Assembly (NCBI GenBank): GCA_965222605.1
Contig: OZ244960.1
Coordinates: forward strand, 4,416,001 to 4,480,000
Origin: Candidatus Latescibacterota bacterium
GTDB taxonomy: Bacteria; Latescibacterota; UBA2968
DNA length: 64,000 nucleotides
Direction of reading: 5' to 3'
The first letter of the stretch is position 1; each line of letters starts with the position of its first letter. The notes beneath the pieces are model-generated. The model ran no database searches. It worked only from the letters and a program-made list of their open reading frames with translations, and was not told where the DNA came from. This document shows positions 13,105 to 34,670 of this stretch, piece by piece. Position numbers and translations under genes: made by a program.

Positions 13105-13989
13105 TCAGGAGATGAATTCTTGGCCGATCTTCCACACCCCCTTCTCTCGAAAAGCGGGAATGGTCTGGCGACGGGCGGCGTTGGTGACAGCGGGTGCCGA
13201 AAGCCCATTCTGTCTAATATAATCCGATAGCTTGGTGATTGCCTCTCCCTTCAAATATCTCAGTCGCTTGTGCAGAGCCTCTATGAGAGCCAGTGATAGA
13301 ATCCCTTCCATCGTCCTGGTCGTTCTGCCATCTCCGTAGTCTCTGAATGCCCGATAGTAAGTCTCCTTCTCCGAGTTGCGGATAATAAGGCGCGGCAGAC
13401 GGAGTTGCAGGAGTTGAAAATTGATAATGACCCGCCCCATGCGGCCATTGCCGTCACAAAAGGGATGGATGGTCTCGAAATCCAGATGAAATCGGGCAAT
13501 TTTATCCAGGAAGTAGGCGTCGAGGTCGCTGGAATACTCGACAAGGATATGATCTATCATGCGCTCCACCTGCTCGGGTGCTGGCGCAATATGAGTGCCT
13601 ACCCGCACGTATTCTCCCTGCTGGCGAAAGCGGCCTGCAATGGCATCGTTGATGCCGCCGATAAGCATCTGATGTAAGAGTAGCATCAGGTCTTTGTTCA
13701 GTTCGCTATCTTTCGCTCTGTTGCGCTTATATTCTGTGACACGAGCCAGGTTTTTCGCCTCAAAGACTTCCCGCACAGATACATTCCGAGATATCATCTG
13801 CTCCAACAGGATTTTCTCTGTCTCATTGAGGGTGAGAGTGGAATTTTCAATCGCGTTCGAGTTGTACACGCTTTCGGGTATCTCGACTTCGTCAATCATC
13901 GACAGTAGCGATTCTTTACCCTGACGCAAGATATCGTACTCTCGTTTCAGAGCCTGGATGCGGTTTTTTGTCGGTTGTGTGCTTGCCAT
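13105..13989 (-). CDS. Fic family protein
   Basis: Fic motif HPFCDGNGRMGR; N-terminal YNSNAIENSTL. Confidence 0.92.
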   Translation of the reverse strand: MASTQPTKNRIQALKREYDILRQGKESLLSMIDEVEIPESVYNSNAIENSTLTLNETEKILLEQMISRNVSVREVFEAKNLARVTEYKRNRAKDSELNKDLMLLLHQMLIGGINDAIAGRFRQQGEYVRVGTHIAPAPEQVERMIDHILVEYSSDLDAYFLDKIARFHLDFETIHPFCDGNGRMGRVIINFQLLQLRLPRLIIRNSEKETYYRAFRDYGDGRTTRTMEGILSLALIEALHKRLRYLKGEAITKLSDYIRQNGLSAPAVTNAARRQTIPAFREKGVWKIGQEFIS

Positions 13990-14003
13990 ATCATTAGAAT
14001 ACC

Positions 14004-14114
14004 CTATTCACTGTAAATTGTCAAATTTTAGTGAATAGATGGGTAAAAATGGACTCTATTCATGATAAATTGTCAAATTTTAGTGAATAGATGGGTAAAA
14101 TGAGTTCTATTCAT
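14004..14114. repeat. Tandem ~52-bp repeat (2+ units), each unit an imperfect palindrome, upstream of fic
   Basis: ctattca..taaattgtcaaattttagtgaatagatgggtaaaa starts at 14004 and 14056; a partial third ctattca starts at 14107. Confidence 0.85.
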
Positions 14115-14152
14115 GGTTTTTTTAGGTCAAGTATGTGGTATTACGACCTGGC

Positions 14153-14935
14153 TCAAGCCATGTAGAAGGCGAACGAGATTCGCGTGGAGCGCGGCGCATC
14201 GGATTGATCGCGTTCTATATCTGGATATTCCTGCCATTGTCGCCCGTCCAGCGTGTTGCCACCGGCCTTGGGCGTGCGACCTCCCCACTGCTTAAAGAAG
14301 AAAGCGACGTTTTGCGCCTGACATTGATCGCGCAATTCACGCAACCACTCTATCTTGACCGGGCGTGCTCCTGGTCCGCTTTCGCCTCCTGCGATTACCC
14401 AGTGAATATCCGTAAGGTCCACCGAGCCAAGCGTGTCGAGCAACGGCTCGAATGAAACAAAGCGCGTTGAGGCGTTGGTCTGTTTCAAGTGCCGCAGGCG
14501 CGTCATGGCCGCAGCGTCTTCGATAGAGACACCGAGCCAGATATGTGGCGGAACGGACAGGCTCCCATAGCGTTGATGGACAAAATCGCGCATTAGCGAA
14601 CTGCGCTTGGTTAGCACTTGATAGATGTGCCAATCCGCATGCTCCATTGTGTCAAATACGCGATGGATATACTGAGTTGGAATGTCCTTATGAAACAGGT
14701 CGCTCATCGAATTGACAAAGATGAGTTGCGGACGCCGCCAGTGCATGGGTTGTTCAAGGCGTTCGGGTCGAAGCGTGAGATCAAAACCCGTCTCGAAAGG
14801 ATTGCCCTTGACGCCGCGGAAACGCTCCGATAATCGTTCGGCATAGCAATGATCGCAACCCGCACTCACTTTTGTGCAGCCGGTGACCGGGTTCCATGTG
14901 CTGTTGGTCCATTCAATAGTACTTTTGCGCGACAT
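14153..14935 (-). CDS. DUF5131 / phage Gp37-Gp68 family protein (three-Cys motif), copy 1
   Basis: IEWT..TWNPVTGCTKVSAGCDHCYA, IFVNSMSDLFH, LTKR, SFEPLL, WVIAGGESG, FFKQWGG. Confidence 0.92.
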   Translation of the reverse strand: MSRKSTIEWTNSTWNPVTGCTKVSAGCDHCYAERLSERFRGVKGNPFETGFDLTLRPERLEQPMHWRRPQLIFVNSMSDLFHKDIPTQYIHRVFDTMEHADWHIYQVLTKRSSLMRDFVHQRYGSLSVPPHIWLGVSIEDAAAMTRLRHLKQTNASTRFVSFEPLLDTLGSVDLTDIHWVIAGGESGPGARPVKIEWLRELRDQCQAQNVAFFFKQWGGRTPKAGGNTLDGRQWQEYPDIERDQSDAPRSTRISFAFYMA

Positions 14936-15417
14936 GCAATTCCCCTATGTGCCATTCGGAATAACTAAAAAAATTACTGCACATAAGTATAGTTTTTTCT
15001 TGTCCAAAGATCAAGTATGTAGTACTTTGATTTTGTAAGAGATTGAAATTTGTGTGGTCGTAGAGTTTGGAAGACCACTTTCTGAGGAAAAGAATGAGTG
15101 CTCTTGATAAATTCCACAATAAGTCTATGGAAGTAGCGTTTTTCGCTGACCAAGAACGGCGACGAGGCAATGAGGAACAGGCGGTGGAGTTGTTTGAGCA
15201 AGCACTGGACCTGGAGCTTAAAGCCTTGGCAGAGATAACCGAGCCTGTTGAACCGAGGTACTCAGTACTGCATCGCAGTGCTGGTTGGCTGGCTTTGGAC
15301 TGCAATCGGCCACGCTTGGCAGAGCAATTGGCCTGCAAAGCCCTCGCTGGCGACCCTCATCCAAAAATCGATGAGGAACTGCGCGACCTGCTGACGGAAA
15401 CCTACGCACGGATGCAC
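14216..15417. repeat. ~1.2 kb direct repeat, copy 1 (DUF5131, promoter, divergent small gene)
   Basis: Aligns by eye with 21333-22538 over its full length with scattered substitutions. Confidence 0.9.
14978..15015 (-). promoter_or_regulatory. Putative sigma70 promoter of DUF5131 overlapped by a LexA-like box
   Basis: Minus strand TTGATC-N17-TATACT; TGCAC-ATAA-GTATA at 14978-14991; conserved at 22096-22109 and 29779-29792. Confidence 0.5.
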
Positions 15418-15450
15418 CTCCAATTAGGGAAACAGGTCTTACGACCTTGA
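15094..15450 (+). CDS. Small all-helical (TPR-like) hypothetical protein, copy 1
   Basis: 118 aa; near-identical to 22215-22583 up to TYARMH, then a different tail. Confidence 0.8.
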   Translation: MSALDKFHNKSMEVAFFADQERRRGNEEQAVELFEQALDLELKALAEITEPVEPRYSVLHRSAGWLALDCNRPRLAEQLACKALAGDPHPKIDEELRDLLTETYARMHLQLGKQVLRP

Positions 15451-15461: not shown

Positions 15462-15513
15462 TCTCAATCTAATTATATATGTCAACCTTTAATTGTACAT
15501 TGGTGGTGATTGT

Positions 15514-16608
15514 ATGAGTGAATCTCTTAATCAAGAGGTGTACAACTGCGATAGCAGTTCATTCAATGCACAAGTGTTTGATCTGTTTTGTAGCATTGGA
15601 GGTTTGACCTATGGACTAAAACGGGCTGGAATGGCGGTCAACGCAGGTCTGGATATTGATGGTTCGTGCCATTATGCTTATGAAAATAACTGCAAAGCGA
15701 CTTTTATTGAAGCGGATATTAGGGAAATCTCTTTTTCGGATATTTCAAGGTATTTTAATGATGCGGAATATCGCGTGCTTGTCGGTTGCGCGCCTTGTCA
15801 ACCGTTCTCCAGCCATACGGCCAAAATGAAGTCTTATGAGTCGGATTCGAGATGGAATCTGATTGATGAATTTCTGAGAATAATTCTTGAGGGCAGACCA
15901 GAGATTATCTCAATGGAGAATGTGCCTCAACTCATGGACAAGCCGATTTATAATAATTTTAAGCGCGAGTTAGCCGATGCAGGGTATCGTGTTTCTGATG
16001 GGGTTATATCCTGTGCCGACTTCGGGGTTCCGCAAAGTCGAAGCCGTTTGGTTATGTTTGCGTCTTTGTTGGGTAGGATTGATATGCCGAAACCCGCCCC
16101 CCAAAAGCCTAAAACGGTTAGACAAGCAATTGGGCACCTCGCACCTCTTGATCAGGGGCAATCAAACGAGGATGATTCTCTACATGTTTGTTCTCGATTA
16201 GAGCCAATCAACCTGAAACGCATCCGGTGCTCTAAGCCCGGTGGAAGTTGGCGAGATTGGCCTACTGAATTATTGCCAGATTGCTACAAGAAAGATAGTG
16301 GCTTAAGCTATGGTAGCGTTTACGGGCGTATGCAGTGGGATAAGCCAGCACCTACGCTGACCACGCAGTTTTATCGTTATGGAACCGGGCGCTATGGGCA
16401 TCCAGAACAAGACAGGGCTCTGAGCTTGAGAGAAGGGGCAATTCTCCAAACTTTCCCCGAGGAGTATCAGTTTGTTGCTCCCGGTGAAAAAGCGTCATTT
16501 TTGAGAATTGGCCGTCAAATCGGCAATGCTGTTCCACCATCTTTGGCTTATGCTATCGGGAAAGCAATTACAGGTCATTTAAAAAAGAGGGGCAACAAAA
16601 ATGCCTGA
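15514..16608 (+). CDS. DNA (cytosine-5) methyltransferase, HgiDII-like type II system
   Basis: Motif I DLFCSIGG, motif IV GCAPCQPFS, ENV, Q.R.R, RALSLREGAILQTFP, IGNAVPP. Confidence 0.92.
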   Translation: MSESLNQEVYNCDSSSFNAQVFDLFCSIGGLTYGLKRAGMAVNAGLDIDGSCHYAYENNCKATFIEADIREISFSDISRYFNDAEYRVLVGCAPCQPFSSHTAKMKSYESDSRWNLIDEFLRIILEGRPEIISMENVPQLMDKPIYNNFKRELADAGYRVSDGVISCADFGVPQSRSRLVMFASLLGRIDMPKPAPQKPKTVRQAIGHLAPLDQGQSNEDDSLHVCSRLEPINLKRIRCSKPGGSWRDWPTELLPDCYKKDSGLSYGSVYGRMQWDKPAPTLTTQFYRYGTGRYGHPEQDRALSLREGAILQTFPEEYQFVAPGEKASFLRIGRQIGNAVPPSLAYAIGKAITGHLKKRGNKNA

Positions 16609-18574
16609 AAGACTTAAGCTGGCTATGGACTTGAATGTGCTCAATCACCTGGGGCTAAACCTGTATAGCAATGTCCCCGCAGTTCTATCTGAATTGATTG
16701 CCAATGCTTGGGATGCTGATGCCTCTCGGGTAGATGTATCCGTAAAAGAGCGAGGTGAAGGTAAGGAAATTAACATTCAAGACAATGGTTGCGGGATGAA
16801 TTACGAAGATTTGCGTACAAAATTTCTAACTGTTGGTTATCGGCGCCGTACGAAAGAAAGTGAAGACTTTACACCAAATAAGAAACGACCCGTTATGGGG
16901 AGAAAGGGCATTGGCAAGTTGTCTGTCTTGTCTATTGCCCGGAAAGTATATGTCTATACAAAAAAGGAGGACACCGATCCTCTGGCAATTGAGTTAGACG
17001 TTGAAGAAATCCAGAAAGCAATAGAAAAAAACGAAGACTATTATCCTCCTATCATTGATATGCCAGAAGACATTAATCTCAGAAGTTCTGGCACGGCACT
17101 CGTTTTGAGCGATCTGAAAAAAAGGGTTAATGCATCACTTGACGCCCATCTGCGCCAGCGCGTAGCACGCCGCTTTTCGATTATTTCCAAAGACTTTCAA
17201 GTGTTCGTTAATGATGATGAGATTACAATAAATGACAGGAACTACTTCGGGAAGTTGGAATATGCATTGGTGTACGGCGATTTCGAAAAGTCCAATTTTA
17301 AGCACGATAAGAGATATGTGGTTCAACGAGCGGAAAATACAGTAGATGAGCAGGGACAATATTCTGTTAGCGGCTGGATTGGTTTGGTCAAAGAATCAGG
17401 AGCATTACAAGAGGGCGCGGATAATCTGAACAAAATATCCATACTCGCCAGGGGAAAGGTTGCGTTGGAAGATATCCTGGATTCATATCGAGAAGGTGGA
17501 CTATATACAAAGTACATCATAGGCGAACTGGAGGCGGATTTTCTTGATTTAACAGATGAAGACGATATTGCCACATCCAGTAGGCAGGATTTTATTCAGA
17601 GCGATGAGCGATTTGTTCAACTGAGGGCATTTGTCGAACAGGAACTAAAATATTTGGCAAACGAACGAGTAAAACTAAAGGATGAAGAAGGAGCGAAGAA
17701 AGCCAGTGAAATTCCCGCTGTCAAGGAATGGTACGAGTCATTGAAAGGAGATTCTAAAACCTCCGCCAAAAAATTATTCGGCAGGATTAACCAAATAGCA
17801 ACTGACGAAGACCACAGAAAAACGCTTTACAAACATGGGGTTTTGGCGTTCGAACACTTGCATCATAAGGAAAAGTTAAACGAGTTGGAACAGCTCGACA
17901 TCGAAAATCTTGAGATTGCCGTAAAGCTCTTTTCCGAGTTAGATGATATAGAAGCATCATGGTATTATCAAATTACGGAAGGTCGCTTGGATGTAATTCG
18001 GAAGTTGTCTGACGACATTGATGAAGATGTACTGGAAAAGATTATTCAAAAGCATATTTATAACCATCTCTGGCTACTGGACCCATCGTGGGATAGAGCT
18101 ACAGAAACGCCCACCTTAGAACAGTCTGTTACGACGACTTTTGAGAAAATTTCCGACAAATTGAGTGAAGAGGAAAAAAAGGGGCGTCTGGATATTAGAT
18201 ACAAGAAAACATCGGGTAAGCATGTGATCGTTGAATTGAAGAGAGGATCTGTTCCTGTTTCAAGCGATAGCCTTTCGGGGCAAGTTTATAAGTACATACG
18301 AGCATTGAGGAAACAGTTACGTGAAGCTAATGAGGATGGGGCAGTTGAAGCGATTTGTCTGGTAGGGAAAGAACTCAGTGATGGGGAAGATTCAGAAAGC
18401 CGACAAGAGATAGAACGGTCTTTGGCAGCAAAAAATATTCGAGTGATTACTTACAAGCAACTGATTCGAGATGCAGAGGCAAGTTACCAACATTACCTTG
18501 AAAAGAGCAAAGATATAGGCCGGATCCGACGGCTATTAGATGAGATTGAAACATTTGATGGCTCTACATTCTGA
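16601..18574 (+). CDS. GHKL/MORC ATPase-fused restriction endonuclease (HgiDII-like)
   Basis: ELIANAWDADA, DNGCGM, MGRKGIGKLS; C-terminal PD-(D/E)xK-like GRLDI...IVELKR; overlaps the MTase stop. Confidence 0.82.
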   Translation: MPERLKLAMDLNVLNHLGLNLYSNVPAVLSELIANAWDADASRVDVSVKERGEGKEINIQDNGCGMNYEDLRTKFLTVGYRRRTKESEDFTPNKKRPVMGRKGIGKLSVLSIARKVYVYTKKEDTDPLAIELDVEEIQKAIEKNEDYYPPIIDMPEDINLRSSGTALVLSDLKKRVNASLDAHLRQRVARRFSIISKDFQVFVNDDEITINDRNYFGKLEYALVYGDFEKSNFKHDKRYVVQRAENTVDEQGQYSVSGWIGLVKESGALQEGADNLNKISILARGKVALEDILDSYREGGLYTKYIIGELEADFLDLTDEDDIATSSRQDFIQSDERFVQLRAFVEQELKYLANERVKLKDEEGAKKASEIPAVKEWYESLKGDSKTSAKKLFGRINQIATDEDHRKTLYKHGVLAFEHLHHKEKLNELEQLDIENLEIAVKLFSELDDIEASWYYQITEGRLDVIRKLSDDIDEDVLEKIIQKHIYNHLWLLDPSWDRATETPTLEQSVTTTFEKISDKLSEEEKKGRLDIRYKKTSGKHVIVELKRGSVPVSSDSLSGQVYKYIRALRKQLREANEDGAVEAICLVGKELSDGEDSESRQEIERSLAAKNIRVITYKQLIRDAEASYQHYLEKSKDIGRIRRLLDEIETFDGSTF

Positions 18575-18588: not shown

Positions 18589-18840
18589 TCACTCACGGTT
18601 TACTTCCTCCGCTATTTCATCTACGTCGTATTGGAATGCTGAAACCTTGAACCGACCCAGTGCCGCGATAAATTCACTACGGGATAGACCCGAAATTTCA
18701 GCCGCTCGGCTTTGGGAAACCACCTCCATCTCATACCATTTCACAGCGGCAGCCAAACGCAATTCTTGGGCGAAATGATCCGGGTCTTTTCGCACCGAAG
18801 AAAGCGCGTCTTCTGGTAGTTCAAAAGTGACTGTTACCAT
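18589..18840 (-). CDS. UPF0175 family (antitoxin-like) protein
   Basis: ELRLAAAVKWYE...SQSRAAEISGLSRSEF. Confidence 0.85.
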   Translation of the reverse strand: MVTVTFELPEDALSSVRKDPDHFAQELRLAAAVKWYEMEVVSQSRAAEISGLSRSEFIAALGRFKVSAFQYDVDEIAEEVNRE

Positions 18841-18965
18841 GTGATTCTCTCCTGATAGACCAATCTATGTTGCGTGTAATCGCCCTACTACAGTCGTGTG
18901 GTTTTTTACAATATATGAGAACGCAATTGTTGAATCAAACCATTACTGCTACTTCACTTCACTCG

Positions 18966-19035
18966 CTCTCCACACCCTTCCCACCGCATCCTGTATCTTC
19001 TTCTCAAATTGCTCAATCAACTCCCGGTTAGCGGC
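18966..19035 (-). repeat. Orphan copy A of the hsdS 3' end
   Basis: ccacacccttcccaccgcatcctgtatcttcttctcaaattgctcaatcaactccc matches 32428-32483 with 2 mismatches; encodes AANRELIEQFEKKIQDAVGRVW. Confidence 0.9.
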
Positions 19036-19181
19036 CGCCCCCACCTGCAGGAAGCCAAACCAGTTTGCAACTCGTTCCATCCTCCTATCAGTTTGACCCG
19101 TTTTTTCACTGAAAAAAGTGAGTTGTACAGCAACAAAGGATGAGGTTTTGATTCTGGCAGGGAATGGGTTATATTTGGCTT

Positions 19182-19214
19182 ATGATCCTCAGTTTCCGCC
19201 ACAAAGGTCTCAAA
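19182..19214 (+). pseudogene. 5' stub of a HigB toxin gene (rest deleted)
   Basis: atgatcctcagtttccgccacaaaggtctcaaa = [11 protein letters not shown], a typical HigB N-terminus, directly before higA. Confidence 0.7.
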
Positions 19215-19215
19215 T

Positions 19216-19488
19216 ATGTCAATGAAGAATCCCCCGCATCCGGGGCTATCAGTACGCTGCGATTGCCTGGAGCCACTCGGTCTGAGTATGGCTGAAGCCG
19301 CGCAAAAACTCGGCGTTGACTACAAGGAGTTATCGGATATCGTGAATGGCCGGGCTGGCATATCGCCCGAGATGGCGATTCGCCTGGACAAAGCCTTCGG
19401 CGGTGGCGCGATCACATGGTACCGCATGCAGGCGGCCTACGATTTGGCCCAGGCCATGCAGAAGGCTGATGAGATTCGGGCTTCTTAA
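19216..19488 (+). CDS. higA: HigA family antitoxin
   Basis: [33 protein letters not shown]. Confidence 0.88.
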
Positions 19489-19587: not shown

Positions 19588-20373
19588 ATGTCAAACAGAA
19601 GAAGATGGACACGACAGGAGTTGCTTGTAGCATTTGGACTGTACGATCAAATACCATTCGGCCAATTCCATGCAGGAAATCCAGAAATCATTAAATTCGC
19701 TGAACTTATTGGGAGAACGCCGGGCGCATTGGCAATGAAATTATCGAATATAGCGCACCTTGATCCAGAGATAACTTCGACTGGTCGCAAAGGGTTATCA
19801 GGTGCATCTTATGCGGATAGAGAAATGTGGCAAGAAATGCAAAATAATTGCAATAATTTTGCAATAGAGGTAGAAAGGGCTATCAATTCTATTCTGCAAG
19901 GTAGCGAGTCTTACGTTGCAGAAAGTGAAAGTGCATCTGAATACCAGGATTACACTGGTCAGGATAGGATTGTTCCAGCCAAAACACGGATTGGTCAGAA
20001 TTTTTTCAGGAAATCGGTGCTTAGTGCTTATAGATATAGATGCTGTATCACTGGCCTTGCCATTCCCAAACTCTTGGTAGCCAGTCATATCGTGCCGTGG
20101 CGTGATGATCCAGCGAATAGACTTAACCCAAGGAATGGATTGGCTTTGTCAACACTCCACGACAAGGCGTTTGATCTCGGAATGATCACCATAAATCATG
20201 ATATGACAGTTCGGTTATCACAGAAGGAATTTAGTGTGAAAGATAAATTTTTTATCACTGCTTTGAGAAATTATGACGGAAAATCGATAGAATTACCAGA
20301 TAAGTTTCAGCCACATAAAGACTTTCTTGCATATCATCGTGAGAATATATTCCTGGAAAATCGCTGCTTATAG
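19588..20373 (+). CDS. HNH endonuclease (putative restriction nuclease)
   Basis: RIGQNFFR..VL.AY...CCITG, LVASHIVPW, NPRNGLAL..LHDKAFD. Confidence 0.88.
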   Translation: MSNRRRWTRQELLVAFGLYDQIPFGQFHAGNPEIIKFAELIGRTPGALAMKLSNIAHLDPEITSTGRKGLSGASYADREMWQEMQNNCNNFAIEVERAINSILQGSESYVAESESASEYQDYTGQDRIVPAKTRIGQNFFRKSVLSAYRYRCCITGLAIPKLLVASHIVPWRDDPANRLNPRNGLALSTLHDKAFDLGMITINHDMTVRLSQKEFSVKDKFFITALRNYDGKSIELPDKFQPHKDFLAYHRENIFLENRCL

Positions 20374-25918: not shown

Positions 25919-25952
25919 AAGGGCGTCAGAAGTCATTTCTGGCGTCTTTTTT
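25919..25952 (+). terminator. Intrinsic terminator
   Basis: gggcgtcagaa-gtcat-ttctggcgtc followed by a T-run. Confidence 0.7.
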
Positions 25953-26076
25953 ACATTTATAAGTCTCTCTCTTTCAGTGATTTACGCGAGTTGGGTGTAC
26001 AAAGTATATAATTCCCTTTTTTTGAATCGCGTAATTTGTGTAGCAAACCTTGCCAGTGTCTCTGCTTCCCTTATTC

Positions 26077-26472
26077 TCATAAATTCTGAGCCTCGCGCAG
26101 CCGCTCAAAACAGTAATTCACAAATTGCGGCAGCATGCCTTCCCGCGGTTCGCAACCGCTCAAGCGTGCGCCATGAAACAACCCAGCGAATGCAATCTCT
26201 TTTGAGGGACCAACGCTGACAGTAAGCATCACGTTTCGGTCAATGATCCAATCGAAATCCACTTCGCCGTGTGGTGTAGCGACAATATCTGGCCTACCGA
26301 TATGAGGCGGGAATTCGTCGATAAGTTTCTGGGCAATATCTACTGTCTCCGGAGCAAGTGCCATAGCACCTTCGCCATCCCAGTCTTCGGTTCCAGCATC
26401 TTCAAGTAGACTATGAACTGCACCCTTGAGAGCAGTTCGCTCCATATCCGGATACATGTGTGTCAGTGCCAT
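26077..26472 (-). CDS. Hypothetical protein
   Basis: GGAGAA RBS; DWDGEGA...P.IVATPHGEVDFDW pattern. Confidence 0.7.
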   Translation of the reverse strand: MALTHMYPDMERTALKGAVHSLLEDAGTEDWDGEGAMALAPETVDIAQKLIDEFPPHIGRPDIVATPHGEVDFDWIIDRNVMLTVSVGPSKEIAFAGLFHGARLSGCEPREGMLPQFVNYCFERLREAQNL

Positions 26473-26569
26473 TTGTCAGTTCTCCATCGCAGACTTACTG
26501 TCTCCAAATGCTTGATTATGTATGAAGACCACTTTTAGCATCGTTCATTCCTCCGGCCCAGCTTGCTTG

Positions 26570-26616
26570 TTCTCTCCCACATCCTTCTCACCGTATCCTT
26601 TATCTTCTTCTCCAAT
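26570..26616 (-). repeat. Orphan copy B of the hsdS 3' end
   Basis: ttctctcccacatccttctcaccgtatcctttatcttcttctccaat versus hsdS ttctccccacacccttcccaccgtatcctgtatcttcttctcaaat; encodes LEKKIKDTVRRMW. Confidence 0.8.
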
Positions 26617-26632
26617 GTCCTACCATCTTCCT

Positions 26633-28009
26633 CTATTCACGCTTCCTATGTGGCGGGGCGTTTGTGTTTCCGTTTTTGTAGTGTGGCCTGCTCGGAAATA
26701 TCCAGAAACGATTCGTGTCTTCGGGCTGCCTTTGTTCTAAGTATTCCACTTGATCCTTGCGGAGAATATGAAGCCTGCGGTTCTGGTCAAGGAAAAAGAA
26801 GAAACCACTGTTGGCAGCAATCAGTACAAAATCTGATGTTGACAATGAAAGACTGTCCTTGAGCTTGACGTCATATGCATTTATGCTATGTAGTTCTTCA
26901 TATCTAAACTCGTCTATTGTACTTCCCAACGAAGCCCACAGATGTGCAAAGAAACAAAAAATGAAGATAAGAATATATTGAGCTGGAATCGGTTTCTTGA
27001 AGTACTTCTGACACATATTGGGTAGCAAGAACATAGATAGGAAGATAGCTGTAAAGTATCCGAATGAATAAAAAAGCTGAATATTCTGAAAATATTCTAC
27101 TATAGTACCAATCAATGCCGTTGCTATTATAATAAGGCTATGAATTCGTCTCCCTTTGTGCCCATAGCTGATTTGGGCAATAGACTTTCGTGAGGCACTA
27201 TGATCACCAAGAAAGAAGAAGATTGTGCCCCAGACCGTAGCGGAGAAAGTATAGCCGATTCTGGAAATACTTGAGGAAATGTAATCTGAAAGGGTGAAGA
27301 ATTTAGACACATCAACACCAAACTCCCCGAGTAACAGATAGTTATACAGGTAGCCTGAAATTAGAAAAAGTGAAGATGCAGCAGAGATCAGAACTACGAT
27401 TTCTGAAGCCGAGATGTCAATCTTCAAGGCTTTGCGGTCAGCAATCGTATCTCTCAACTTTGCAATATCTTTTTTTAGTTTACGCTTCAACTGGCGTATA
27501 TCTCTATTTGTTAGAGGGGTAACCCCCAATCCCATTTTCTTAGCACGAGAAAGATGGTATTGGGCAAAGGAATCGTTCTCCAGTCCGATTTCTACAAAAT
27601 GCTGAATTAGACAATAATCACTCAAAATCTGTTTGACGCTCTGTTCCTCTTCTATTTTTTCCACTATCGAATCTACATCCTTCTTAAATTTGGAATATAA
27701 GGCATTTGGTTTGTCATAAGTTTCTCGATGTTCGTCCGGAATATCTTCTGTAGGGAAATTGTCATCTATCCCGAATATCTCTGGTTTGAGCAACCTAAGA
27801 GCAGCTACATGGACGACCCCATCGAAAGCCTCATCATCGCCCTCAAGACGGGCTTCTAATGTCATTTTCCTGATTAGGTTCTTCATTTTTAGTAATAGCA
27901 GAGAACCTACATCTATAGCCCGCTTAAACCTTAGTTGTTTTATCTTATATGCAAGCTTTAAAAAAAATAGAAGCAGATGTAATCGGTGTTTTTGAAGAAG
28001 TTTTCGCAT
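26633..28009 (-). CDS. Hypothetical multi-pass membrane protein with soluble N-terminal domain
   Basis: About 5 hydrophobic segments in the C-terminal half; the upstream in-frame extension is DUF5131 remnant sequence; start uncertain. Confidence 0.7.
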   Translation of the reverse strand: MRKLLQKHRLHLLLFFLKLAYKIKQLRFKRAIDVGSLLLLKMKNLIRKMTLEARLEGDDEAFDGVVHVAALRLLKPEIFGIDDNFPTEDIPDEHRETYDKPNALYSKFKKDVDSIVEKIEEEQSVKQILSDYCLIQHFVEIGLENDSFAQYHLSRAKKMGLGVTPLTNRDIRQLKRKLKKDIAKLRDTIADRKALKIDISASEIVVLISAASSLFLISGYLYNYLLLGEFGVDVSKFFTLSDYISSSISRIGYTFSATVWGTIFFFLGDHSASRKSIAQISYGHKGRRIHSLIIIATALIGTIVEYFQNIQLFYSFGYFTAIFLSMFLLPNMCQKYFKKPIPAQYILIFIFCFFAHLWASLGSTIDEFRYEELHSINAYDVKLKDSLSLSTSDFVLIAANSGFFFFLDQNRRLHILRKDQVEYLEQRQPEDTNRFWIFPSRPHYKNGNTNAPPHRKRE

Positions 28010-28058
28010 GTTGAAATAACCATTATGCCTGCAAAAGTTTGTTGGAACAGGCACTATA

Positions 28059-28424
28059 TCAATTGAACCAAGTGTGCCGAGTAACGGCTCGAATGAAACA
28101 AATCGTGTTGAGGCGTTGGTCTGTTTTAAGTGCCGCAGGCGTGTCATGGCCGCAGCGTTTTCGATGGAGACACCAAGCCAGATGTGTGACGGGGAAGATA
28201 GGCTCTAATAGCGTTGATGGACAAAATCGTGCATTAGCGAACTGTGCTTGGTCAGCACTTGATAGGTGTGCCAATCCGCATGTTCCATCGTGTCAAATAC
28301 GCGATGGATATATTGAGTTGGTATGTCCTTATGGAACAGATCGCTCATCGAACTGACGAAGGTGAGTTGAGGTCGCCGCCAGTGCTTAGGTTGCTCAAGG
28401 CATTCGAGGCGAAGGGTTAGATCA
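28059..28424 (-). pseudogene. Internal fragment of DUF5131 (copy 3)
   Basis: DLTLR...[22 protein letters not shown]...SFEPLLGTLGSID with an in-frame TAG at 28205-28207. Confidence 0.88.
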
Positions 28425-28480: not shown

Positions 28481-29488
28481 TCAATAGAGTGTCCGTTGTG
28501 CTGAAATGAGGTAGGAATAGACGCCAACTTCGTCCGACTGACTAGGTAGCAGTCCGAAAGTCGCGCCAGCACCTGCAATAGCCGCACCAATAGGATCCCC
28601 AGTGTGGTAAGTCCACGCCGCACCAGCCAAGCTGATTCCAAAGGAGATCGATTTTTTCCAAGCAAGACGATGTACCTTCTTTAACGCACTTGCTGCGTCG
28701 TCAAGTTCTTCTTGGCGTTGTTCGAATATAGCTTGACGTTCTTCCGCTGGCATGAGGCTCAATTCACGCGCGAATTTACGTATCGATAGACTATAATTTC
28801 GATGTTGGGAATAGTTCTGTCGCCGAAAATCGAGTATTTCTTCCATGGGAACGCTCCCTAAATCTACACCGACCATAGCCATGTCAAACGAAACAATGTC
28901 GCCAATTGACGGGGAGGAAGCACCCGGCTTCGAAATGATCTCGTTCAAGGCGTTGACAAGATCCCATCGATCGGTTGCTGGAGAAAGCGTCAGACCCATA
29001 TCCACACCTTTATTCCTGATGATCTGGGCAAGCAGAACCAAGATCAACGTGCGCACGGTTCTATGCATTGGAATGGTAACTCCATCCTCTGAATCATCAG
29101 CCAAACCACGAGCTTTAAGCTCTTGGAAGATAAAGTCAGCGAGTTGTTTATCGCCATGGTACCCAAGCCTCGACATTGATAAAGATCCAAAGGCGGAGCG
29201 TTTTGGATCCTTTAGATGGTCTAATCTTCCAGAGGCGATTATTTCGACAAGTGCCTCCGCTAATACCTCGGTTTCTTTTGCACCGACATTTTTTTCTGGA
29301 CGGATCACATGAAACAATTCGTGGTCCTTAAGAGACGATATGATCGCGTAGTCATCGAATGTGCTGTGATCTTCCATATAGTCAGGAATTAACATGGCGA
29401 TTCCATCAAAAAAAAGAATGAGGTTCTTGATCCAATCTGCGTCGTGCCAATATTGACCAGGGTAATAAAAAGCAACGTCTGGTTTCAT
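28481..29488 (-). CDS. Hypothetical protein (DUF6236-like)
   Basis: AFYYP....DADWIKNLILFFDGIA N-terminus, VPMEEILDFR, hydrophobic Gly/Ala tail; AGGAG RBS. Confidence 0.7.
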   Translation of the reverse strand: MKPDVAFYYPGQYWHDADWIKNLILFFDGIAMLIPDYMEDHSTFDDYAIISSLKDHELFHVIRPEKNVGAKETEVLAEALVEIIASGRLDHLKDPKRSAFGSLSMSRLGYHGDKQLADFIFQELKARGLADDSEDGVTIPMHRTVRTLILVLLAQIIRNKGVDMGLTLSPATDRWDLVNALNEIISKPGASSPSIGDIVSFDMAMVGVDLGSVPMEEILDFRRQNYSQHRNYSLSIRKFARELSLMPAEERQAIFEQRQEELDDAASALKKVHRLAWKKSISFGISLAGAAWTYHTGDPIGAAIAGAGATFGLLPSQSDEVGVYSYLISAQRTLY

Positions 29489-29544
29489 GGTTTACGTCTC
29501 CTGTAGTATGGGTGAATTTTTGTTTTTTTAGTTATGTAGTGGAC

Positions 29545-29605
29545 ACCTGAATTTTTCTCCCCATCCGCTCTACCAACTTTCGGTTGGCGGCAACGAGGGC
29601 TTGTT
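29545..29605 (-). repeat. Orphan, diverged copy C of the hsdS 3' end
   Basis: Encodes QQALVAANRKLVERMGRKIQ versus HsdS EQELVDANWELIERFEKKIQ. Confidence 0.65.
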
Positions 29606-29656
29606 GGATTGCCAAAGATAGGAGCAGGCTTTTGTAATTTTCTATTACTAACCTCG

Positions 29657-29836
29657 GAACTCGCACTCCCCTTTGTGCATCTGGCGACCGGATTCCAGGT
29701 ACTGTTGGGCCACTCAATAGTGTTTTTGCGCGACATGCAATTCTCTTGTGTGCCATTCGGAATAACTAAAAAAATTACTACACATAAGTATATTATATTT
29801 TCGCGCAAAGATCAAGTATGTGATATTTTGATTCTG
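29657..29836 (-). pseudogene. DUF5131 promoter and first ~26 codons (copy 4)
   Basis: ATG at 29736: MSRKNTIEWPNSTWNPVARCTKGSAS; upstream region matches 14936-15035. Confidence 0.85.
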
Positions 29837-29854
29837 GAAGAAGAAAGGGTATAT

Positions 29855-30008
29855 TGTGAAAGAGAGAATGCTTGTAACGTGGGTCTGATTGACTACCACT
29901 AAGCAAGAGAAGAATAAAGATAAAGAATCCACCCCATCCGGAGCTGTCGATACGCTACGATTGCCTGGAGCTACTTGGGCTGAGTGTGGCTGACTCCCCG
30001 CAAAAACG
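29855..30008 (+). pseudogene. higB 3' end plus higA 5' end remnant
   Basis: ENACNVGLIDYH* (HigB-type C-terminus), then KNPPHPELSIRYDCLELLGLSVA, matching the start of 19216-19488. Confidence 0.75.
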
Positions 30009-30073
30009 GTGATATTCAAATGGCTCGTCTCAACGTGGGGCGAGCTACTATTATGGAGGTTTTAATAAATAAG

Positions 30074-31705
30074 ATGTATCTAAAGAAAGTTCATATCGAC
30101 AATTACGGTGCGATCAAAAGCATCAATATTGATTTATCGTTTGATGATACTGGTAATCCGAAACCAGTTTTGTTGGTAGGTTCAAATGGTTCAGGAAAAA
30201 CTCTTTTTTTAGCGTCTATCGTGAACAGTCTTATAGAGGCGATTAACAGTTTTCATTCTGGAGATTCCCAATATCAATTTATGTCTCCTAACTATATTAG
30301 AGATAGTGCTGATTATGCGTGGCGACGGGTAGAATTTACGCATGACTATTCTTTTTATTCATTAGTTCTCCATTCACCCAAAACGAGCGAATCATCCCTT
30401 CAGGTTGATGATGAGACAATACAAAAGTTTTATGACGAGATAGTGGAGGGGGGCGATTCAGGAAGCATTCGGAATTTTGATGGTGTTCAATCTGTTTTTC
30501 GTGAAAATTGTCTGTTATATCTTCCTGTCAATCGGTTTGAACACCCTTTTTGGCTTGTGACAGATTGGGAATCACGAAAATCCCAATGGATACAAATGTC
30601 AGATGGAGGGGACATTCAGGATCACAGGTATAGCATTATAGAGTACTCATCTCTTCAAAAAAACAAGGAATGGGTAGCAAGCGTTTTGAGTAATCAAACA
30701 AGCGTATCTTCGGATATTCATAAATTTGTCAGACACCTTGAAAACGAAATCGTATCAGGCAAGGACACGGGGCTCTTAAAAGAAAACATTTTATCCAGAA
30801 GTGACGACTATCTCACTGATTATTTTCAACTATCATCAGGAGAAGCTATGGTCGCCAATATTTGTTTCTCTATATTAAGAAGGTTTGGTTCGCATAAGCG
30901 GAATACACGTATATCTGATATTTCTGGGATTGTGATGGTTGATGAGATAGATCTCCACCTTCATACATCTTATCAGCATCAAAATCTCCCTAAACTAATG
31001 AAACTATTTCCCGGTATTCAGTTTATAGTCACAACGCATTCTCCATTTTTTGTCCTTGGAATGGACGAAGTGTTTGGGGCAGATGGTTTTGATATTTACG
31101 AGTTCCCGTCGGGATGCCAAATAAGTGCCGAAGATTTTGGTGAATTTAGAAGTGCCTTTCAATCCATGAAACAGACAGACACTTTCAAAAAAGAAATCAA
31201 AGATGCCCAAAAACCTGTTGTGATATTGGAAGGGAAAACGGACAAAAAATATTTACTGAAGGCAGCTAAATTTTTGAAAAAAGAGGATGTGATTGCAAAG
31301 GTTGAATTAAAATGCGGAGAGGGTTTTCCTGGTTTAGATAGTATTTGGAAGAGATGGAAGAATGACTCTATCCGAATGATCCTCCTTTATGATTGCGATT
31401 GCGAGAGAAACGACGAGACTGATTCTGTGTTCAGACGAAACATTCCCAAGCAAGATGGGCATCCTGTCGAGAAGGGTATAGAGAATTTGTTTAGTGAAGA
31501 GATATTGGATAAAGCTGCCAAAGGAGTTGGTAAGAACCAAATTGAAGATTTGGTCAACCGTCAGAACGGAAGTCTTGGGAAGAAAGTAGAGATTTGTGAT
31601 TGGATATGCGAAAATGGCGGGGAAGACGATTTTAAGTATTTTGAGGATGTATTTAGCATTTTGGAGGATGCCTTTCAGTTCTTTGAAGTGCAGGAGAATA
31701 TATAA
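30074..31705 (+). CDS. ABC/AAA ATPase with C-terminal TOPRIM-like domain (OLD-like candidate defence protein)
   Basis: Walker A GSNGSGKT, LSSGE, Walker B VDEIDLHLH, TTHSPF; ILEGKTD and LYDCD TOPRIM-like motifs. Confidence 0.82.
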   Translation: MYLKKVHIDNYGAIKSINIDLSFDDTGNPKPVLLVGSNGSGKTLFLASIVNSLIEAINSFHSGDSQYQFMSPNYIRDSADYAWRRVEFTHDYSFYSLVLHSPKTSESSLQVDDETIQKFYDEIVEGGDSGSIRNFDGVQSVFRENCLLYLPVNRFEHPFWLVTDWESRKSQWIQMSDGGDIQDHRYSIIEYSSLQKNKEWVASVLSNQTSVSSDIHKFVRHLENEIVSGKDTGLLKENILSRSDDYLTDYFQLSSGEAMVANICFSILRRFGSHKRNTRISDISGIVMVDEIDLHLHTSYQHQNLPKLMKLFPGIQFIVTTHSPFFVLGMDEVFGADGFDIYEFPSGCQISAEDFGEFRSAFQSMKQTDTFKKEIKDAQKPVVILEGKTDKKYLLKAAKFLKKEDVIAKVELKCGEGFPGLDSIWKRWKNDSIRMILLYDCDCERNDETDSVFRRNIPKQDGHPVEKGIENLFSEEILDKAAKGVGKNQIEDLVNRQNGSLGKKVEICDWICENGGEDDFKYFEDVFSILEDAFQFFEVQENI

Positions 31706-31758
31706 GCGATCCCCATTCTCCGCGGGATCCATGTCCACTACAGGGGTAGTGAGAGCTA

Positions 31759-32349
31759 CTATTCTGGCATATTGACACTCATTGTAAATAGGACCTCGTT
31801 GGAGGAATTACGTTCATCGGCTTTTATATTTTTATTTTTTTTCTTCACACTTACTGCCTCAGATAGAGCAACACGCATTCCATTGGTCAAATCTGTTGCC
31901 CTTTCTAACTCTTTTTGGATGCCTACCAACTCCTTCAGCATTTCCATCCGGCCTTTCTCTGTTTGAAACTTTTTCTTCCTTTGTCCGAAGAAGTGGTGAA
32001 TCAGGAAATTTCTTTTTTTAAGGGCATTATCCAAGTACTGTTCAATAGTATTATCATGGATTGTTACATACTTTCTGAATTCAAAAAGTAATGCTCCCAT
32101 CGTCTTTTTTTGGATCTTTGTCTCAATAGTTTCCAAATCCTGTAGGGTTAAAGACGTTTTTAAAATTTTGTTGTAAACCAATAGAAATTCACCAAGTGCA
32201 GCCTCGAAAAAATAACTGTGCTGTGCTGCTGATCCAAAACACGCAAAAACGGCATTGAGTTGTCCTTCTTTGGTTTTTAGCATTCTCAGTGACTCACTCG
32301 TGTATCCTACTTGATCGTCAAGAGTACGGTGTCTTAATTTATTTTTCAT
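31759..32349 (-). CDS. Hypothetical protein with HEPN-like motif
   Basis: Helical; KTMGALL and RNFLIHHFF (RxxxxH). Confidence 0.7.
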   Translation of the reverse strand: MKNKLRHRTLDDQVGYTSESLRMLKTKEGQLNAVFACFGSAAQHSYFFEAALGEFLLVYNKILKTSLTLQDLETIETKIQKKTMGALLFEFRKYVTIHDNTIEQYLDNALKKRNFLIHHFFGQRKKKFQTEKGRMEMLKELVGIQKELERATDLTNGMRVALSEAVSVKKKNKNIKADERNSSNEVLFTMSVNMPE

Positions 32350-32418
32350 TTCAAGTATTCCATTTCAAGGATAAAAAAATTCCATAGGATTTTCTGGTCT
32401 GAGACCAAATTTTTGGCT

Positions 32419-34670
32419 TTATTCTCCCCACACCCTTCCCACCGTATCCTGTATCTTCTTCTCAAATCGCTCAATCAACTCCCAGTTCGCATCCACCAGT
32501 TCCTGCTCTGCTTCGATCTCAGCGACAATAGCTTGCTGAGTTTCGAGGGGTGGTAGAGGTATTTCAATGGATAGATAATTCTTTTGATATAGAGCTGCAA
32601 CACTGGTTGTCCCATCCACGTAGGTACGAATTTTATCTTTTCCGTATTCACTATTCATTACCACATTGACGAAGTCAGAAAGAGCACGGGGGCCAAATCG
32701 AATCCGCAAAATGTTGTTGTTAAATAGATAGCTTCCATCTTTACCATGGAATACTGTGGACTTGCCTACAAGCTCAGGGGAATTCCGAGTGTTATAAATG
32801 AAGTCGCCATTATGTAGAGCATAGCGATTCAATTCCTCAGGCGTGGCATTGATGTACACCATATCTGAAAGATCAAGTGTTCCATTACTCGTAATGTTGT
32901 TCATTTTAATATAGGGATAACAGAATGTAGGATCTTGCTCCGCTTTGTTTCTGACAAGCCCTGTAAGAACATTTTTCACTATATCGCCAATCGGAATACG
33001 TGGCCATTCAGGATCAACCGCAATGTGTGGTCGATAGTTCTCCACCACTGCCCGCGCTCCGTCAATCACTCGCTGATAGCCCTCTATTTCCGAGACGATT
33101 TCTCGCTGCACTTCAAGTGATGGTAGGGGAATTGTAATTGACTTCACATCAGACTGATTAATGCTTGGATAAGAGCCTTTACCCATCATCCTAACCATCT
33201 GATCAACCGATTTATCATGCCTCAGCATGTGGATTAAGAATTTGGAGATCACTCGGTCTTTTTTTGAGCGCAAAACAGCAAATCCAGTTGAAGCGATTGC
33301 TCGTTCCGGTATCTCTGTGAGAATGGTAAATGCACGTAAATTCGGTCGAACAGTTGAAAGCAGAATATCGTTTTTTATAACTGACCTTCGTGCCCGACTG
33401 GGGGCATTATCAGTTTCAATTTTATTTGCACCGAGGAATCGGCCAGACTCATTTTCAACACAAGAGATGTCGATATAATCAAAGTATGAACCAGCATACA
33501 GATCCGATGGTCTTTTAACTTCTGGGTTGATCTCACAAATTTCAGACAATTTAACTTGAGGATAATCTAAAGATCGCATATCTCCAACCCGATACCGCTC
33601 TCCGCTCAGATTGTATTCCCCGCCCTCTGCTACTTTTGTTTTTTCAACGATCAGTCCTCGTGTGGTGGATTCGTCCGTTGTGTACTGCGCCTTAGGTTCT
33701 GCGGCCATTGGTGTGGGCTGAGGATCATTTACTGCTTCGCCTGCTCGCAGTCGCGTGAGATATTCACAAAGCTCATCTGCCACTTGTGGCAGGTCGTTCT
33801 TGTCAATCTCCCGTCGTTGTGCGCCCAAATCAAAGCCGTCGTTTTCTACCTTAAAAAAGGCGATATGGTCTGTCTTTTTCGCCAGTACTTTGTCCAGTAT
33901 GAGAATGGAAGTTTTGACGCCTGAGTATGGATTGAACACGCCAGCGGGAAGCGAGATGACGGCGACGAGAAATTCTTCCACCAGTATTTTGCGGAGTTGT
34001 TTGTGGGCGTTCTGGCTCTGGAAAATGATGCCTTCGGGTACGATGATACCGGCGCGTCCCGCGGGTGTCAGATGTTCGGCCATATAATCGACAAATAGCA
34101 CTTCGCTGCGTTTGGATTGTACGGAGAAGCGGTTGTGCGGGCGGATGCCTCCTTTTGGCGACATGAATGGCGGGTTGGCGAGAATTACATCGGCGTATTC
34201 GTTCCAATTTTCCTCACTGGTGAGGGTGTCGTATTCAGAAATATGCGGATCGGCAAAGCCGTGCAGGTACATATTCACGAGTGATAGGCGCACCATATCG
34301 GGCGATATGTCGTAGCCCTTAAAATTGCCCGCCAGTTTCCCTCGCTCGTCTGGTGTAAGCGTAATTTGGCCCTGTTCGTTGGTATTGGCTTTGAGTATGT
34401 GCTTGTAGGAGGAGATTAAAAACCCGGCGGTACCGCAGGCCGGGTCGAGTACGCTTTCGTCCTTTTTCGGGTCAATGACAGCGACCATGAAGTCGATAAT
34501 ATGGCGTGGCGTGCGGAATTGGCCTGCATCTCCCTGCGAACCGAGTACAGAGAGCAAATATTCGAAAGCGTCGCCGAGTCGCTCGGAGTGGTCGTACTCA
34601 AATTCGTCAATGATTTTGAGAAAGGCGCGCAGGGTCTCGGGGTCGCGGTAAGGCAAAAAGGCATTCTTAA
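32419..34670 (-). pseudogene. hsdM: 3' part of the type I RM HsdM-HsdS fusion, interrupted by an IS
   Basis: GQFRTP, DPACGTAGFL, NPPF (m6A), two TRD/conserved-region repeats (IPLPSLEVQ, IPLPPLETQ); frame continues across the IS. Confidence 0.9.

Follow-up and report, generated by a model that had tools for sequence, protein, structure and literature searches.

An integrase-free defence-gene hotspot in Candidatus Latescibacterota with three probably recombination-stacked island variants and displaced hsdS ends

The immigration control region (ICR, yjiA-yjiN) of Escherichia coli is the classic integrase-free, anchor-bounded island of restriction-modification (RM) genes (PMC12707154), and other defence hotspots flanked by core genes are the core defence hotspots (cDHS) of Pseudomonas aeruginosa (PMC10250203) and those of an E. 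coli survey (PMC10121019). How defence islands gain and shuffle genes without an integrase or transposase is an open question, for which the papers offer "presumably homologous recombination". For the effector-immunity arrays of the Vibrio cholerae type VI secretion system (T6SS), homology-facilitated illegitimate recombination followed by spread through homologous recombination has been proposed (Kirchberger et al. 2017, PMC5361080), and the same paper gives the same sequential-displacement model for the orphan 3' modules of Rhs and contact-dependent inhibition (CDI) genes. In the tvr locus (SpnIV) of Streptococcus pneumoniae, direct repeats at hsdS ends drive the excision of circles and their reintegration, and part of the excision continues when the recombinase or RecA is missing (Kwun et al. 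2018, PMC6265443). Here we describe a locus of Candidatus Latescibacterota bacterium (assembly GCA_965222605.1), analysed in a window of 64,000 nucleotides (contig OZ244960.1, positions 4,416,001 to 4,480,000). All coordinates are positions in this window, G000 denotes the source genome, and the other G-numbers denote genomes of relatives. The region from 13.1 to 39.8 kb lies between a thiamine pyrophosphate (TPP)-enzyme gene (11302-13008, + strand; Pfam TPP_enzyme_N/M/C) and a conserved 293-aa gene named c2 (39855-40736, - strand). We consider it probable that this region is a genus-wide, integrase-free defence-gene hotspot in which three island variants are stacked in G000, likely added by recombination at shared frame sequences, with displaced hsdS tails left at the joints.

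Compared with the described systems, the locus is a core-anchored defence hotspot combined with a sequential-displacement array. Like ICR and cDHS, it holds variable hsdRMS and other defence-rich content between the same bordering core genes, has no integrase or tRNA at its border, occurs in empty or short forms and probably exchanges content by homologous recombination. The ICR and cDHS texts consulted deal with replacement between boundary anchors and describe neither internal arrays of gene-end scars nor stacked whole-island variants. As in the T6SS, Rhs and CDI arrays, new modules stand behind a conserved-anchor gene, and displaced 3' ends, in this locus in some cases together with the gene that had followed them, are retained in one orientation with no integrase; here truncated hsdS 3' ends lie downstream of the resident copy and in its orientation. 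The repeated modules come from different lineages (a synonymous divergence, dS, of 0.43 between DUF5131 copies; one tail from a distant hsdS), just as the T6SS copies come from other lineages and not from duplication. The present locus differs in that its anchor is hsdS of a type I RM system, its passengers are whole defence systems and toxin-antitoxin (TA)-like genes on both strands without immunity genes, a second anchor set (DUF5131, a helical gene and higBA) is repeated, and the short tail shows reassortment of its flanks.

The tvr locus is likewise a type I RM locus with consistently oriented direct repeats at hsdS segment ends and TA-like genes inside. However, tvr shuffles hsdS segments that code for target recognition domains (TRDs) and has its own recombinase TvrR, whereas here the orphan ends come without extra TRD segments and no recombinase is encoded in the locus, so the features of an hsdS shufflon (ivr or tvr) are missing. 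Chromosomal integrons also keep ordered cassettes with a recurring short site between them and the older cassettes further from the entry point. Unlike integrons, the locus has no adjacent intI and no attC hairpin or attC-type imperfect palindrome, its cassettes lie on both strands with their own promoters instead of being mostly promoterless and one-oriented behind a Pc promoter, and its site boundaries vary. An earlier note, written from the letters of this DNA, had called the accumulation integron-like, which holds as an analogy only. Island accretion at a gene 3' end by an integrase-borne element fits no better, with no integrase family present and tail boundaries that vary. Our literature searches, with subscription journals outside their scope, found neither hsdS-tail arrays nor, among the papers listed, sequential displacement of hsdS; DUF5131 came up in one paper, with a single mention, and homology-facilitated illegitimate recombination was found together with the term defense island only in the V. 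cholerae T6SS paper (PMC5361080).

The units of the island follow one scheme, namely a left frame (higBA, DUF5131 and usually the helical gene), then their own cargo, then a right frame made of either a UPF0175 gene (c7) or a 131-aa gene (c8) followed by the final 50-120 bp of hsdS. Unit 1 leads from a Fic gene through a C5 cytosine methyltransferase and restriction enzyme to hsdS tail A. Unit 2 consists of higB'A, an HNH endonuclease gene, a DUF5131-TcmP fusion, the helical gene and a putative ApeA-like HEPN protein, and ends with c8 and tail B. Unit 3 opens with a membrane open reading frame (ORF), a DUF5131 copy split by tail C plus a DUF6236-like gene, and higB'A'; it goes on with an OLD-like ATPase, a 196-aa HEPN-motif protein, the resident hsdS-hsdM (disrupted by an insertion sequence, IS), a PDDEXK_3 gene and hsdR. 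Cargo operons occur on either strand. Pfam scans of 40 ORFs between 11.3 and 41.7 kb detected no recombinase or integrase family, and recombinase families were also absent from 33 ORFs of the relatives' islands. Neither tRNA nor Rfam matches occur in the 64-kb window. The tail has no dyad symmetry and no inverted repeat or hairpin recurs at the joints, in a search that used no dedicated attC model. The earlier statement that integrase and attC sites are absent therefore agrees with these scans. The island is nevertheless not free of mobile elements, as the IS is present.

The repeats were mapped by self-BLASTN of 10-42 kb, and every repeat was direct. The segment 14204-15417 matches 21321-22538 (89.3% over 1219 bp, E=0) and spans DUF5131, the divergent intergenic region and the small helical gene. 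Two further pieces of this region have fragmentary counterparts, 14424-14783 at 28065-28424 (88%, 360 bp) and 14853-15040 at 29654-29841 (84%, 188 bp). The end of the resident hsdS recurs at 18966-19032 (92.5% to 32424-32490, 67 bp, E 2e-21) and at 26567-26616 (88% to 32419-32467, 50 bp, E 5e-10), and a higBA piece at 19222-19309 recurs at 29920-30007 (83%). The claim that all copies of an anchor keep one orientation was thus confirmed, and the different cargo behind each copy is borne out by the self-BLAST and family scans. As to which genes serve as anchors, DUF5131 and the hsdS ends had been named correctly, and the UPF0175 gene, the 131-aa gene and higBA have to be added.

Four head-to-tail units had been read in the sequence earlier, which we revise to three. 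The middle fragment (28065-28424, - strand) and the 5' fragment with its upstream region (29654-29841, - strand) of DUF5131 copy 3 are collinear and lack only 70 bp between them, so that one split copy is the economical reading and the island probably contains three units. In the DNA the two fragments are separated by 1.23 kb, made up of hsdS end C and then the DUF6236-like gene, and this spacer is a piece of a foreign type I locus.

Three orphan hsdS tails were located in the island, all on the - strand. Tail A (18966-19032) corresponds to the last ~22 codons of hsdS, tail B is at 26567-26616, and tail C (29547-29666, ~40 codons) is diverged. It was detected by tblastn with six HsdS C-termini (E 4e-9 to 7e-5), gave no DNA-level match in self-BLASTN, and derives from an hsdS that is far more distant, at 32-41% aa identity. 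The family scan found no Methylase_S domain outside the resident ORF, and the orphan tails of 20-140 bp carry no TRDs. The shared tail core of ~52 bp is equivalent to 32423-32474, the end of the resident hsdS. When the last 144 bp of hsdS were searched in 21 genomes of the genus, matches were obtained in 15, many of them covering only about positions 5-61; all three genome-wide matches of G000 fall inside this island. Among the fetched islands, 8 of 16 sequences hold 14 orphan and 6 resident tails, all of them in + orientation and intergenic, and the number of tail copies rose to 30 after five more regions had been added. Orphan tails are about 20, 45-52, 67, 87, 120 or 140 bp long, and their conservation (88-98%) is no higher than that of the neighbouring modules.

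A six-frame search with the last 45 HsdS residues matched 23 of 53 genomes of the order. Orphan tails in short open frames were present in 11 of the 53, nearly all of them in this genus; in the sister family, a local check placed orphan tails near hsdS in G020 and G023. A metagenome scan with a 30-base degenerate tail pattern gave 0 matches. In G023 (locus L036), a 622-bp direct repeat (94%; 9729-10350 and 16239-16849, oriented) stands on either side of hsdM-S and holds small ORFs and hsdS-tail-like ends, and shorter repeats of the region just downstream of hsdS occur there too. By its sequence context, the resident hsdMS of G023 looks cassette-like itself.

The tails join different neighbours in different genomes. 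Orphan tails of one class have a common right flank, toward c7, c8 or a DUF2442 gene, and differing left flanks, and the opposite pattern occurs too. For example, left class L1 (4 copies) is joined to three right classes (c7 twice, c8 and DUF2442), and right class R2 (6 copies) is joined to five left classes. Meanwhile, a base change specific to L1 lies inside the tail and is independent of the right flank. Because left and right neighbours reassort across the tail, the sequences indicate that crossovers fell inside it. Hence the proposal that homology in gene ends is in use has gained support. The small genes c7 and c8 are flanked by tails on both sides in G015, G006 and G005.

Displacement is seen directly in G014. 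Its orphan is a G009-type hsdS cut 140 bp before the stop codon and still adjoining the downstream gene of G009, c38, and upstream of it stand SIR2, a 290-aa gene and the resident hsdS. Similarly, tail B and the c8 block of G000 are collinear with the resident hsdS and c8 of G005. The contexts from which remnants A and B derive are intact in relatives, as c7-c38-hsdS in G009 and G014 and as c8-hsdS in G005. A former downstream neighbour is still attached to tail B (c8, matching G005), to the G014 orphan (c38, matching G009) and to tail C (the DUF6236-like gene). Many of the 52-bp orphans, by contrast, stay with their upstream neighbour while what lies downstream changes, an arrangement that points to later exchange within the tail.

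The same site was examined in relatives by fetching the locus from 15 genomes of the genus and then six further regions. The TPP-enzyme gene occurs in all 31 genomes that were searched; each of the 18 other genus genomes drawn has its ortholog, with 83-94% aa identity, and hsdR lies 13-24 kb from it in G000, G014, G004, G005, G002 and G009. In G007, G017, G015, G003 and G031 the island sits between the TPP gene and the c2/c12/c10 block, with c2 directly adjoining it, and in G014, G004, G005, G002 and G009 the borders are the same with hsdR in addition. Twelve congeneric genomes have the locus on a single contig; in these, 4.2 to 26.8 kb separate the TPP gene from c2, and hsdRMS is present in 7 and absent in 4. 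HsdR has 94-97% aa identity in 7 genus genomes. Fic, higBA, DUF5131, the helical gene, c7, c8 and the hsdS end recur as modules in variable order and number, and the cargo varies. It includes a second C5-methyltransferase/HATPase system, SIR2, TIR, a 2102-aa NACHT protein, AAA_21 with DUF3226, a reverse transcriptase, TnpB, transposases, FRG-TPR, DUF4365 and MmeI-like genes. Over all islands, the defence content covers RM types I, II and IIG-like, SIR2, TIR, NACHT, reverse transcriptase, OLD/PtuA-like ATPases, HEPN and TA genes, with IS elements and one TnpB as passengers in G000, G014, G004, G031 and G013. This comparison had been set beforehand as the test of the earlier proposal, and the variable cargo and unit number with recurring anchors came out on its side; a single fixed arrangement shared by the relatives, the outcome named as contrary to it, was not what we found.

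Separate parts of the G000 array have counterparts in relatives. Islands similar to unit 1 occur in G007, G017, G005 and G031; G002, G006 and G015 have the core of unit 2 (DUF5131, helical gene and 550-aa gene) as one contiguous block, and the joint of unit 3 between the DUF5131 start (29654-29841) and higB'A recurs in G003 and G031. More than one DUF5131 copy was found only in G000 among the genomes compared (G001-G010, G013-G018, G031, G006). In G031, the closest relative, the flanks are 94-95% identical to those of G000 and the interior modules 87-90%, as would be expected if lineages exchange the interior. In G008 the hotspot is split, its right flank being placed, along with a tail and c8, ~0.74 Mb away from the TPP gene. 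The c2 gene, which matches no family, occurs as a tandem triplicate in G003 (L025, 7924-10660) and as a duplicate in G008 (L028, ~5289-7095).

The DUF5131 copies speak against a recent duplication. Copy 1 (14153-14935, - strand, 260 aa; Pfam DUF5131 5e-98, PADLOC PDC-M41B/M30B) is intact, and copy 2 is part of the DUF5131-TcmP fusion (20382-22052, - strand, 556 aa; Pfam DUF5131 6e-97, NCBIfam TcmP 8e-61, PADLOC PDC-M41B and M41A). The two are 90.2% identical with a dS of 0.43, and the G000 copies are 89-92% identical to those of other species with a dS of 0.29-0.50. Being as distant from each other as from the copies in other species, and more diverged than Fic (dS 0.21-0.27), they resemble imports or old alleles. 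The tree of 9 full DUF5131 segments is a star in which 0 of 6 inner branches are supported, and no donor can be assigned from it. Both full copies have a dN/dS (ratio of nonsynonymous to synonymous divergence) of about 0.1, with 0.06-0.12 for copy 1, which indicates purifying selection on live genes of different descent rather than decaying scars of a recent duplication. Over the full DUF5131 copies, the helical gene, c7 and c8, all intact, the dN/dS is 0.06-0.44. The earlier note had proposed that related type I RM-linked variants were added serially and then eroded to anchors. The displaced hsdS ends and the between-species divergence of the DUF5131 copies agree with serial addition, and the erosion has to be given up in view of these intact genes.

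On these observations, DNA of a congeneric island variant would enter the cell and pair through the conserved hsdM/hsdS side or another frame piece. Its far end would be resolved illegitimately or in a non-allelic frame copy, so that the incoming variant is added and the old one is not replaced. The old hsdS end and its downstream genes would be pushed away, which is sequential displacement. The orphan tails with their ~52-bp core and the small frame genes could then act as portable homology, by which cassettes are swapped, duplicated or deleted. For entry by transformation, a possible route named in the earlier note, ComEC and DprA (58026-58640) are present in G000, but they also matched in 10-11 of 14 control genomes and are near-universal. 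The locus offers a testable picture, in which variants are stacked behind hsdS, gene ends are left as scars, and the 52-bp scar is a genus-wide recombination point. From it follow the predictions that circles or deletions form between tails, that exchange depends on the length of homology, and that the newest cassettes adjoin hsdS. Moreover, orphan gene ends behind hsdS could serve as simple markers of cassette borders in other genomes.

Several points weigh against stacking by recombination. Stretches of 52 bp are short for efficient RecA recombination. No near-identical donor unit was found in the relatives, where the shared modules are 82-96% identical, and hence no event is dated and no donor named. 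The truncation points of the tails vary over the lengths given above. At junction A, 105 bp of filler match neither the resident hsdS nor the higB upstream regions, and neither microhomology nor a crossover can be read there. In addition, two tail classes that differ in their right flanks stop at one identical base, as a site-specific cut would also leave them. The contig evidence is taken from runs X9 and X10, out of X1-X10; these two come from one sample, hold 98-99% of the sampled words and are probably the assembly's own source data. Among the 16 of 206 contig pieces listed, none bridges junction A (18847-19374) or the joints of the DUF5131 copies, and junction A is without independent read support. 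The summed contig depth is higher over the cargo of unit 1 (40-51 in X9) than over units 2-3 (25-31), and some X9/X10 contigs depart from G000 at 14690, 18914 and 32426 and run on into sequence that G000 lacks.

A stronger version of the proposal, which we hold as no more than a tentative possibility, makes the ~52-bp hsdS end a portable cassette-exchange site, where tail-flanked defence cassettes would be excised as circles and reinserted at any other tail, whether in that cell or in a different one. If true, type I RM loci in this lineage, and perhaps beyond it, would be an integrase-free platform for capturing defence genes, integron-like and built from a gene end. It is unlikely that the exchange is instead made by a site-specific system encoded elsewhere, which would recognise the hsdS tail and insert or excise cassettes in trans in the manner of an integron or tvr. 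Such a system would account for the one-oriented orphan tails at cassette joints, the exact end base shared by the two classes, and the c7 and c8 genes enclosed by tails; in tvr, direct repeats at hsdS segment ends do guide excision and reintegration via circles (PMC6265443). However, the scanned islands (40 ORFs in G000 and 33 in relatives) contain no recombinase gene, the other tails are cut at points tens of bases apart, and the tail has neither dyad symmetry nor a stable fold, with no recurrent inverted repeat. Furthermore, many module joints carry no tail at all, for instance those between restriction enzyme and c7 and between c8 and higB'. Ancestral duplication of a unit in place, followed by divergence and by replacement of cargo through ordinary homologous exchange with nothing added from outside, is quite unlikely. 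Tandem duplicates do occur here (c2 three times in G003 and twice in G008, c8 twice in G005, c7 twice in G002), and the unresolved DUF5131 star tree is compatible with an old duplication. Nevertheless, an old duplication would need many losses, since multiple DUF5131 copies were found in G000 only. Junctions A (tail, filler, higB') and B (tail, membrane ORF) also differ and are thus not copies of one duplication joint, and tail C stems from a far more divergent hsdS (the 32-41% aa identity given above).

That the array, or at least the join of units 1 and 2, is an assembly chimera of hotspot variants from co-occurring strains seems very unlikely to us, although the sample behaves like a mixed one. 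The runs hold 10-14 million contigs, some contigs branch at module borders into non-G000 sequence, the summed depth over the cargo of unit 1 is 1.2-1.7 times that over units 2-3, and the CheckM-type contamination is 5.4%. On the other side, G000 is a single closed contig of 6.34 Mb, the repeats are 84-92% identical and not identical, giving little cause for a mis-join in the graph, and similar arrays occur in the independent genomes G002, G005, G014, G015 and G031. X9/X10 k-mer contigs span 22266-28310, 28823-29778 and 29750-32463 with no mismatch and so bridge junction B and the joints around tail C. Some X9/X10 contigs follow G000 to the module borders at 14690, 18914, 26024 and 32426 and then diverge, and one reads a tail fragment before c8 at 26024, as in G002, G005 and G014. 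Since contigs branch into non-G000 sequence, a second related genome with another arrangement of the same modules is present in the sample. Finally, the tails could have been kept as terminators or regulatory elements of the adjacent small genes and would then not be recombination scars, which we regard as most improbable. They do lie in convergent intergenic regions beside c7, c8 or DUF2442 genes and are 88-98% conserved. Yet no terminator-like site overlaps tails A or B (23 sites in the region against 18.3 +/- 4.8 in shuffles), the tail folds no better than shuffles (z of +1.1, -0.06 and +1.1, with -2.9 only for region B with its flanks), its conservation does not exceed that of neighbouring modules, and the longer remnants (140 bp in G014, 120 bp in tail C) are plainly truncated genes. 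Recombination at shared frame sequences remains our preferred reading.

The resident type I system is itself altered. The ORF at 32419-34656 (- strand; Pfam N6_Mtase and Methylase_S) fuses the C-terminal part of hsdM to hsdS, and the N-terminal piece of hsdM lies at 36362-36739 (- strand; Pfam HsdM_N). Between them stands an IS of 1716 bp with a DDE_Tnp_1_4 transposase (34667-36382, - strand; Pfam 4e-150). Because it splits hsdM, the resident type I system is probably inactive, silenced by the IS. The earlier note had read the ORF as the real hsdM-S and missed the IS, which begins just beyond the range it had reported. In the genus and the sister family, hsdM and hsdS form one ORF of ~830-895 aa, a fused M-S polypeptide rather than two genes. 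Eight relatives are continuous across the hsdM site and lack the IS there, and elsewhere in G000 the element recurs nine times with 98.9-99.9% identity and once with 85.7%. The IS has thus been recently active. The same IS stands at two other places of the island in G031. The PDDEXK_3 gene (36852-37235, - strand; Pfam 1e-43) and hsdR (37320-39833, - strand; Pfam ResIII/HSDR_N) follow.

Among the other frame genes, Fic (13105-13989, - strand; Pfam Fic 2e-20, PADLOC PDC-S04/SoFic) belongs to the left frame and has 91-94% DNA identity in 9 relatives, with a dS of 0.21-0.27. A higA 3'-end remnant (14142-14196, + strand) is similar to 19420-19478 and to G000 2109852-2109906. At the corresponding position G014 and G003 have a whole higA, and unit 1 hence formerly had higBA, as these two genomes still do. 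In unit 2, higB' with an internal deletion and an intact higA (19146-19488, + strand; NCBIfam HigA 1.7e-27) match the intact higBA at G000 5829024-5829647 at the DNA level, and G005 has the same higB deletion. The higB'A' remnant of unit 3 (29817-30007, + strand) matches G000 5829230-5829656 and 19222-19309. The UPF0175 gene c7 (18589-18840, - strand; Pfam UPF0175 1e-24, dN/dS ~0.1) has 7 copies across the islands, two of these in G002, and c8 (26077-26472, - strand; dN/dS 0.25-0.44) has 6, two of these in G005. No family was found for c8, and an Atlas look-up returned only unnamed clusters.

The helical, TPR-like gene lies divergent from DUF5131 and has a dN/dS of 0.08-0.32. Copy 1 (15067-15450, + strand; dN/dS 0.14-0.32) opens the + strand cargo operon, and its translation matches paralogs in relatives and at G000 1816281-1816715; copy 2 is at 22161-22583 (+ strand), supported by its translation and dN/dS. 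The gene had correctly been noticed in units 1 and 2, on the wrong strand, as the minus-strand helical ORF is a low-complexity shadow of the + strand gene. The G000 paralog is part of a three-gene operon at G000:C1:1815517-1817224 (170, 144 and 254 aa), and a degraded copy lies at G000:C1 3180633-3181011. This anchor gene therefore belongs to a small family beyond the island. As a further observation, stand-alone DUF5131 genes (251-289 aa) with no TcmP partner nearby occur in all relatives and in unit 1, the fusion occurs in unit 2 alone, and the repeat between units 1 and 2 stops at the DUF5131-TcmP domain border.

The cargo of unit 1 (15493-18574, + strand) comprises the C5 cytosine methyltransferase (Pfam DNA_methylase 7e-54) and a GHKL restriction enzyme of the BbrUII/HgiDII family, which scored 757 bits with NCBIfam NF050001 against a cut-off of 550. 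Unit 2 carries the HNH endonuclease gene (19588-20373, + strand; Pfam HNH_2, PADLOC HNH 1e-121) and a 550-aa protein (22684-24336, + strand) with a C-terminal, HEPN-type RNxxxHH motif at residue 508. The Atlas cluster closest to it, "ApeA N-terminal domain-containing protein" (score 0.94), is no more than a lead, and the protein may be a distant ApeA-type HEPN defence protein; its gene is also present in G002, G015 and G006. The small ORFs behind it (24885-25896, + strand; 117, 72 and 83 aa) have no family match and no match in the relatives compared, among which they are unique to G000. In unit 3, the ORF with C-terminal hydrophobic stretches (26633-28147, - strand) matches Pfam DUF5131 on residues 2-32 only, and its first 32 codons derive from the DUF5131 fragment. 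The DUF6236-like gene (28481-29488, - strand) has a sub-threshold Pfam match (2e-5; 24.3 bits against 26.2). The ABC-type, PtuA/OLD-like ATPase (29984-31705, + strand; Pfam AAA_15/AAA_21, PADLOC PtuA 5e-33) has a TOPRIM-like C-terminus, with the TOPRIM motifs recognised by eye only, and the 196-aa protein (31759-32349, - strand) has an RNxxxHH motif and no family match. Thus most of the gene names first given to the island (Fic, DUF5131, C5-methyltransferase, GHKL restriction enzyme, UPF0175, HigA, HNH, DUF5131-TcmP, ATPase and hsdM-S) were confirmed by Pfam, PADLOC and NCBIfam; DUF6236, the HEPN-like genes and TOPRIM rest on the weaker matches just described. The DUF5131-TcmP fusion, the 550-aa protein, the pair of OLD-like ATPase and 196-aa protein, and the DUF6236-like gene are candidate defence genes riding in the cassettes.

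Two minor observations concern the surroundings of these genes. Between Fic and DUF5131, two tandem near-palindromes of ~35 bp (14004-14091), present in three copies in G007, look like an operator for the Fic promoter region. To the right of c2, a coiled-coil gene (40766-41719) contains short in-frame tandem repeats at 41056-41533 in a 21-bp register, as seen from tblastx self-matches.

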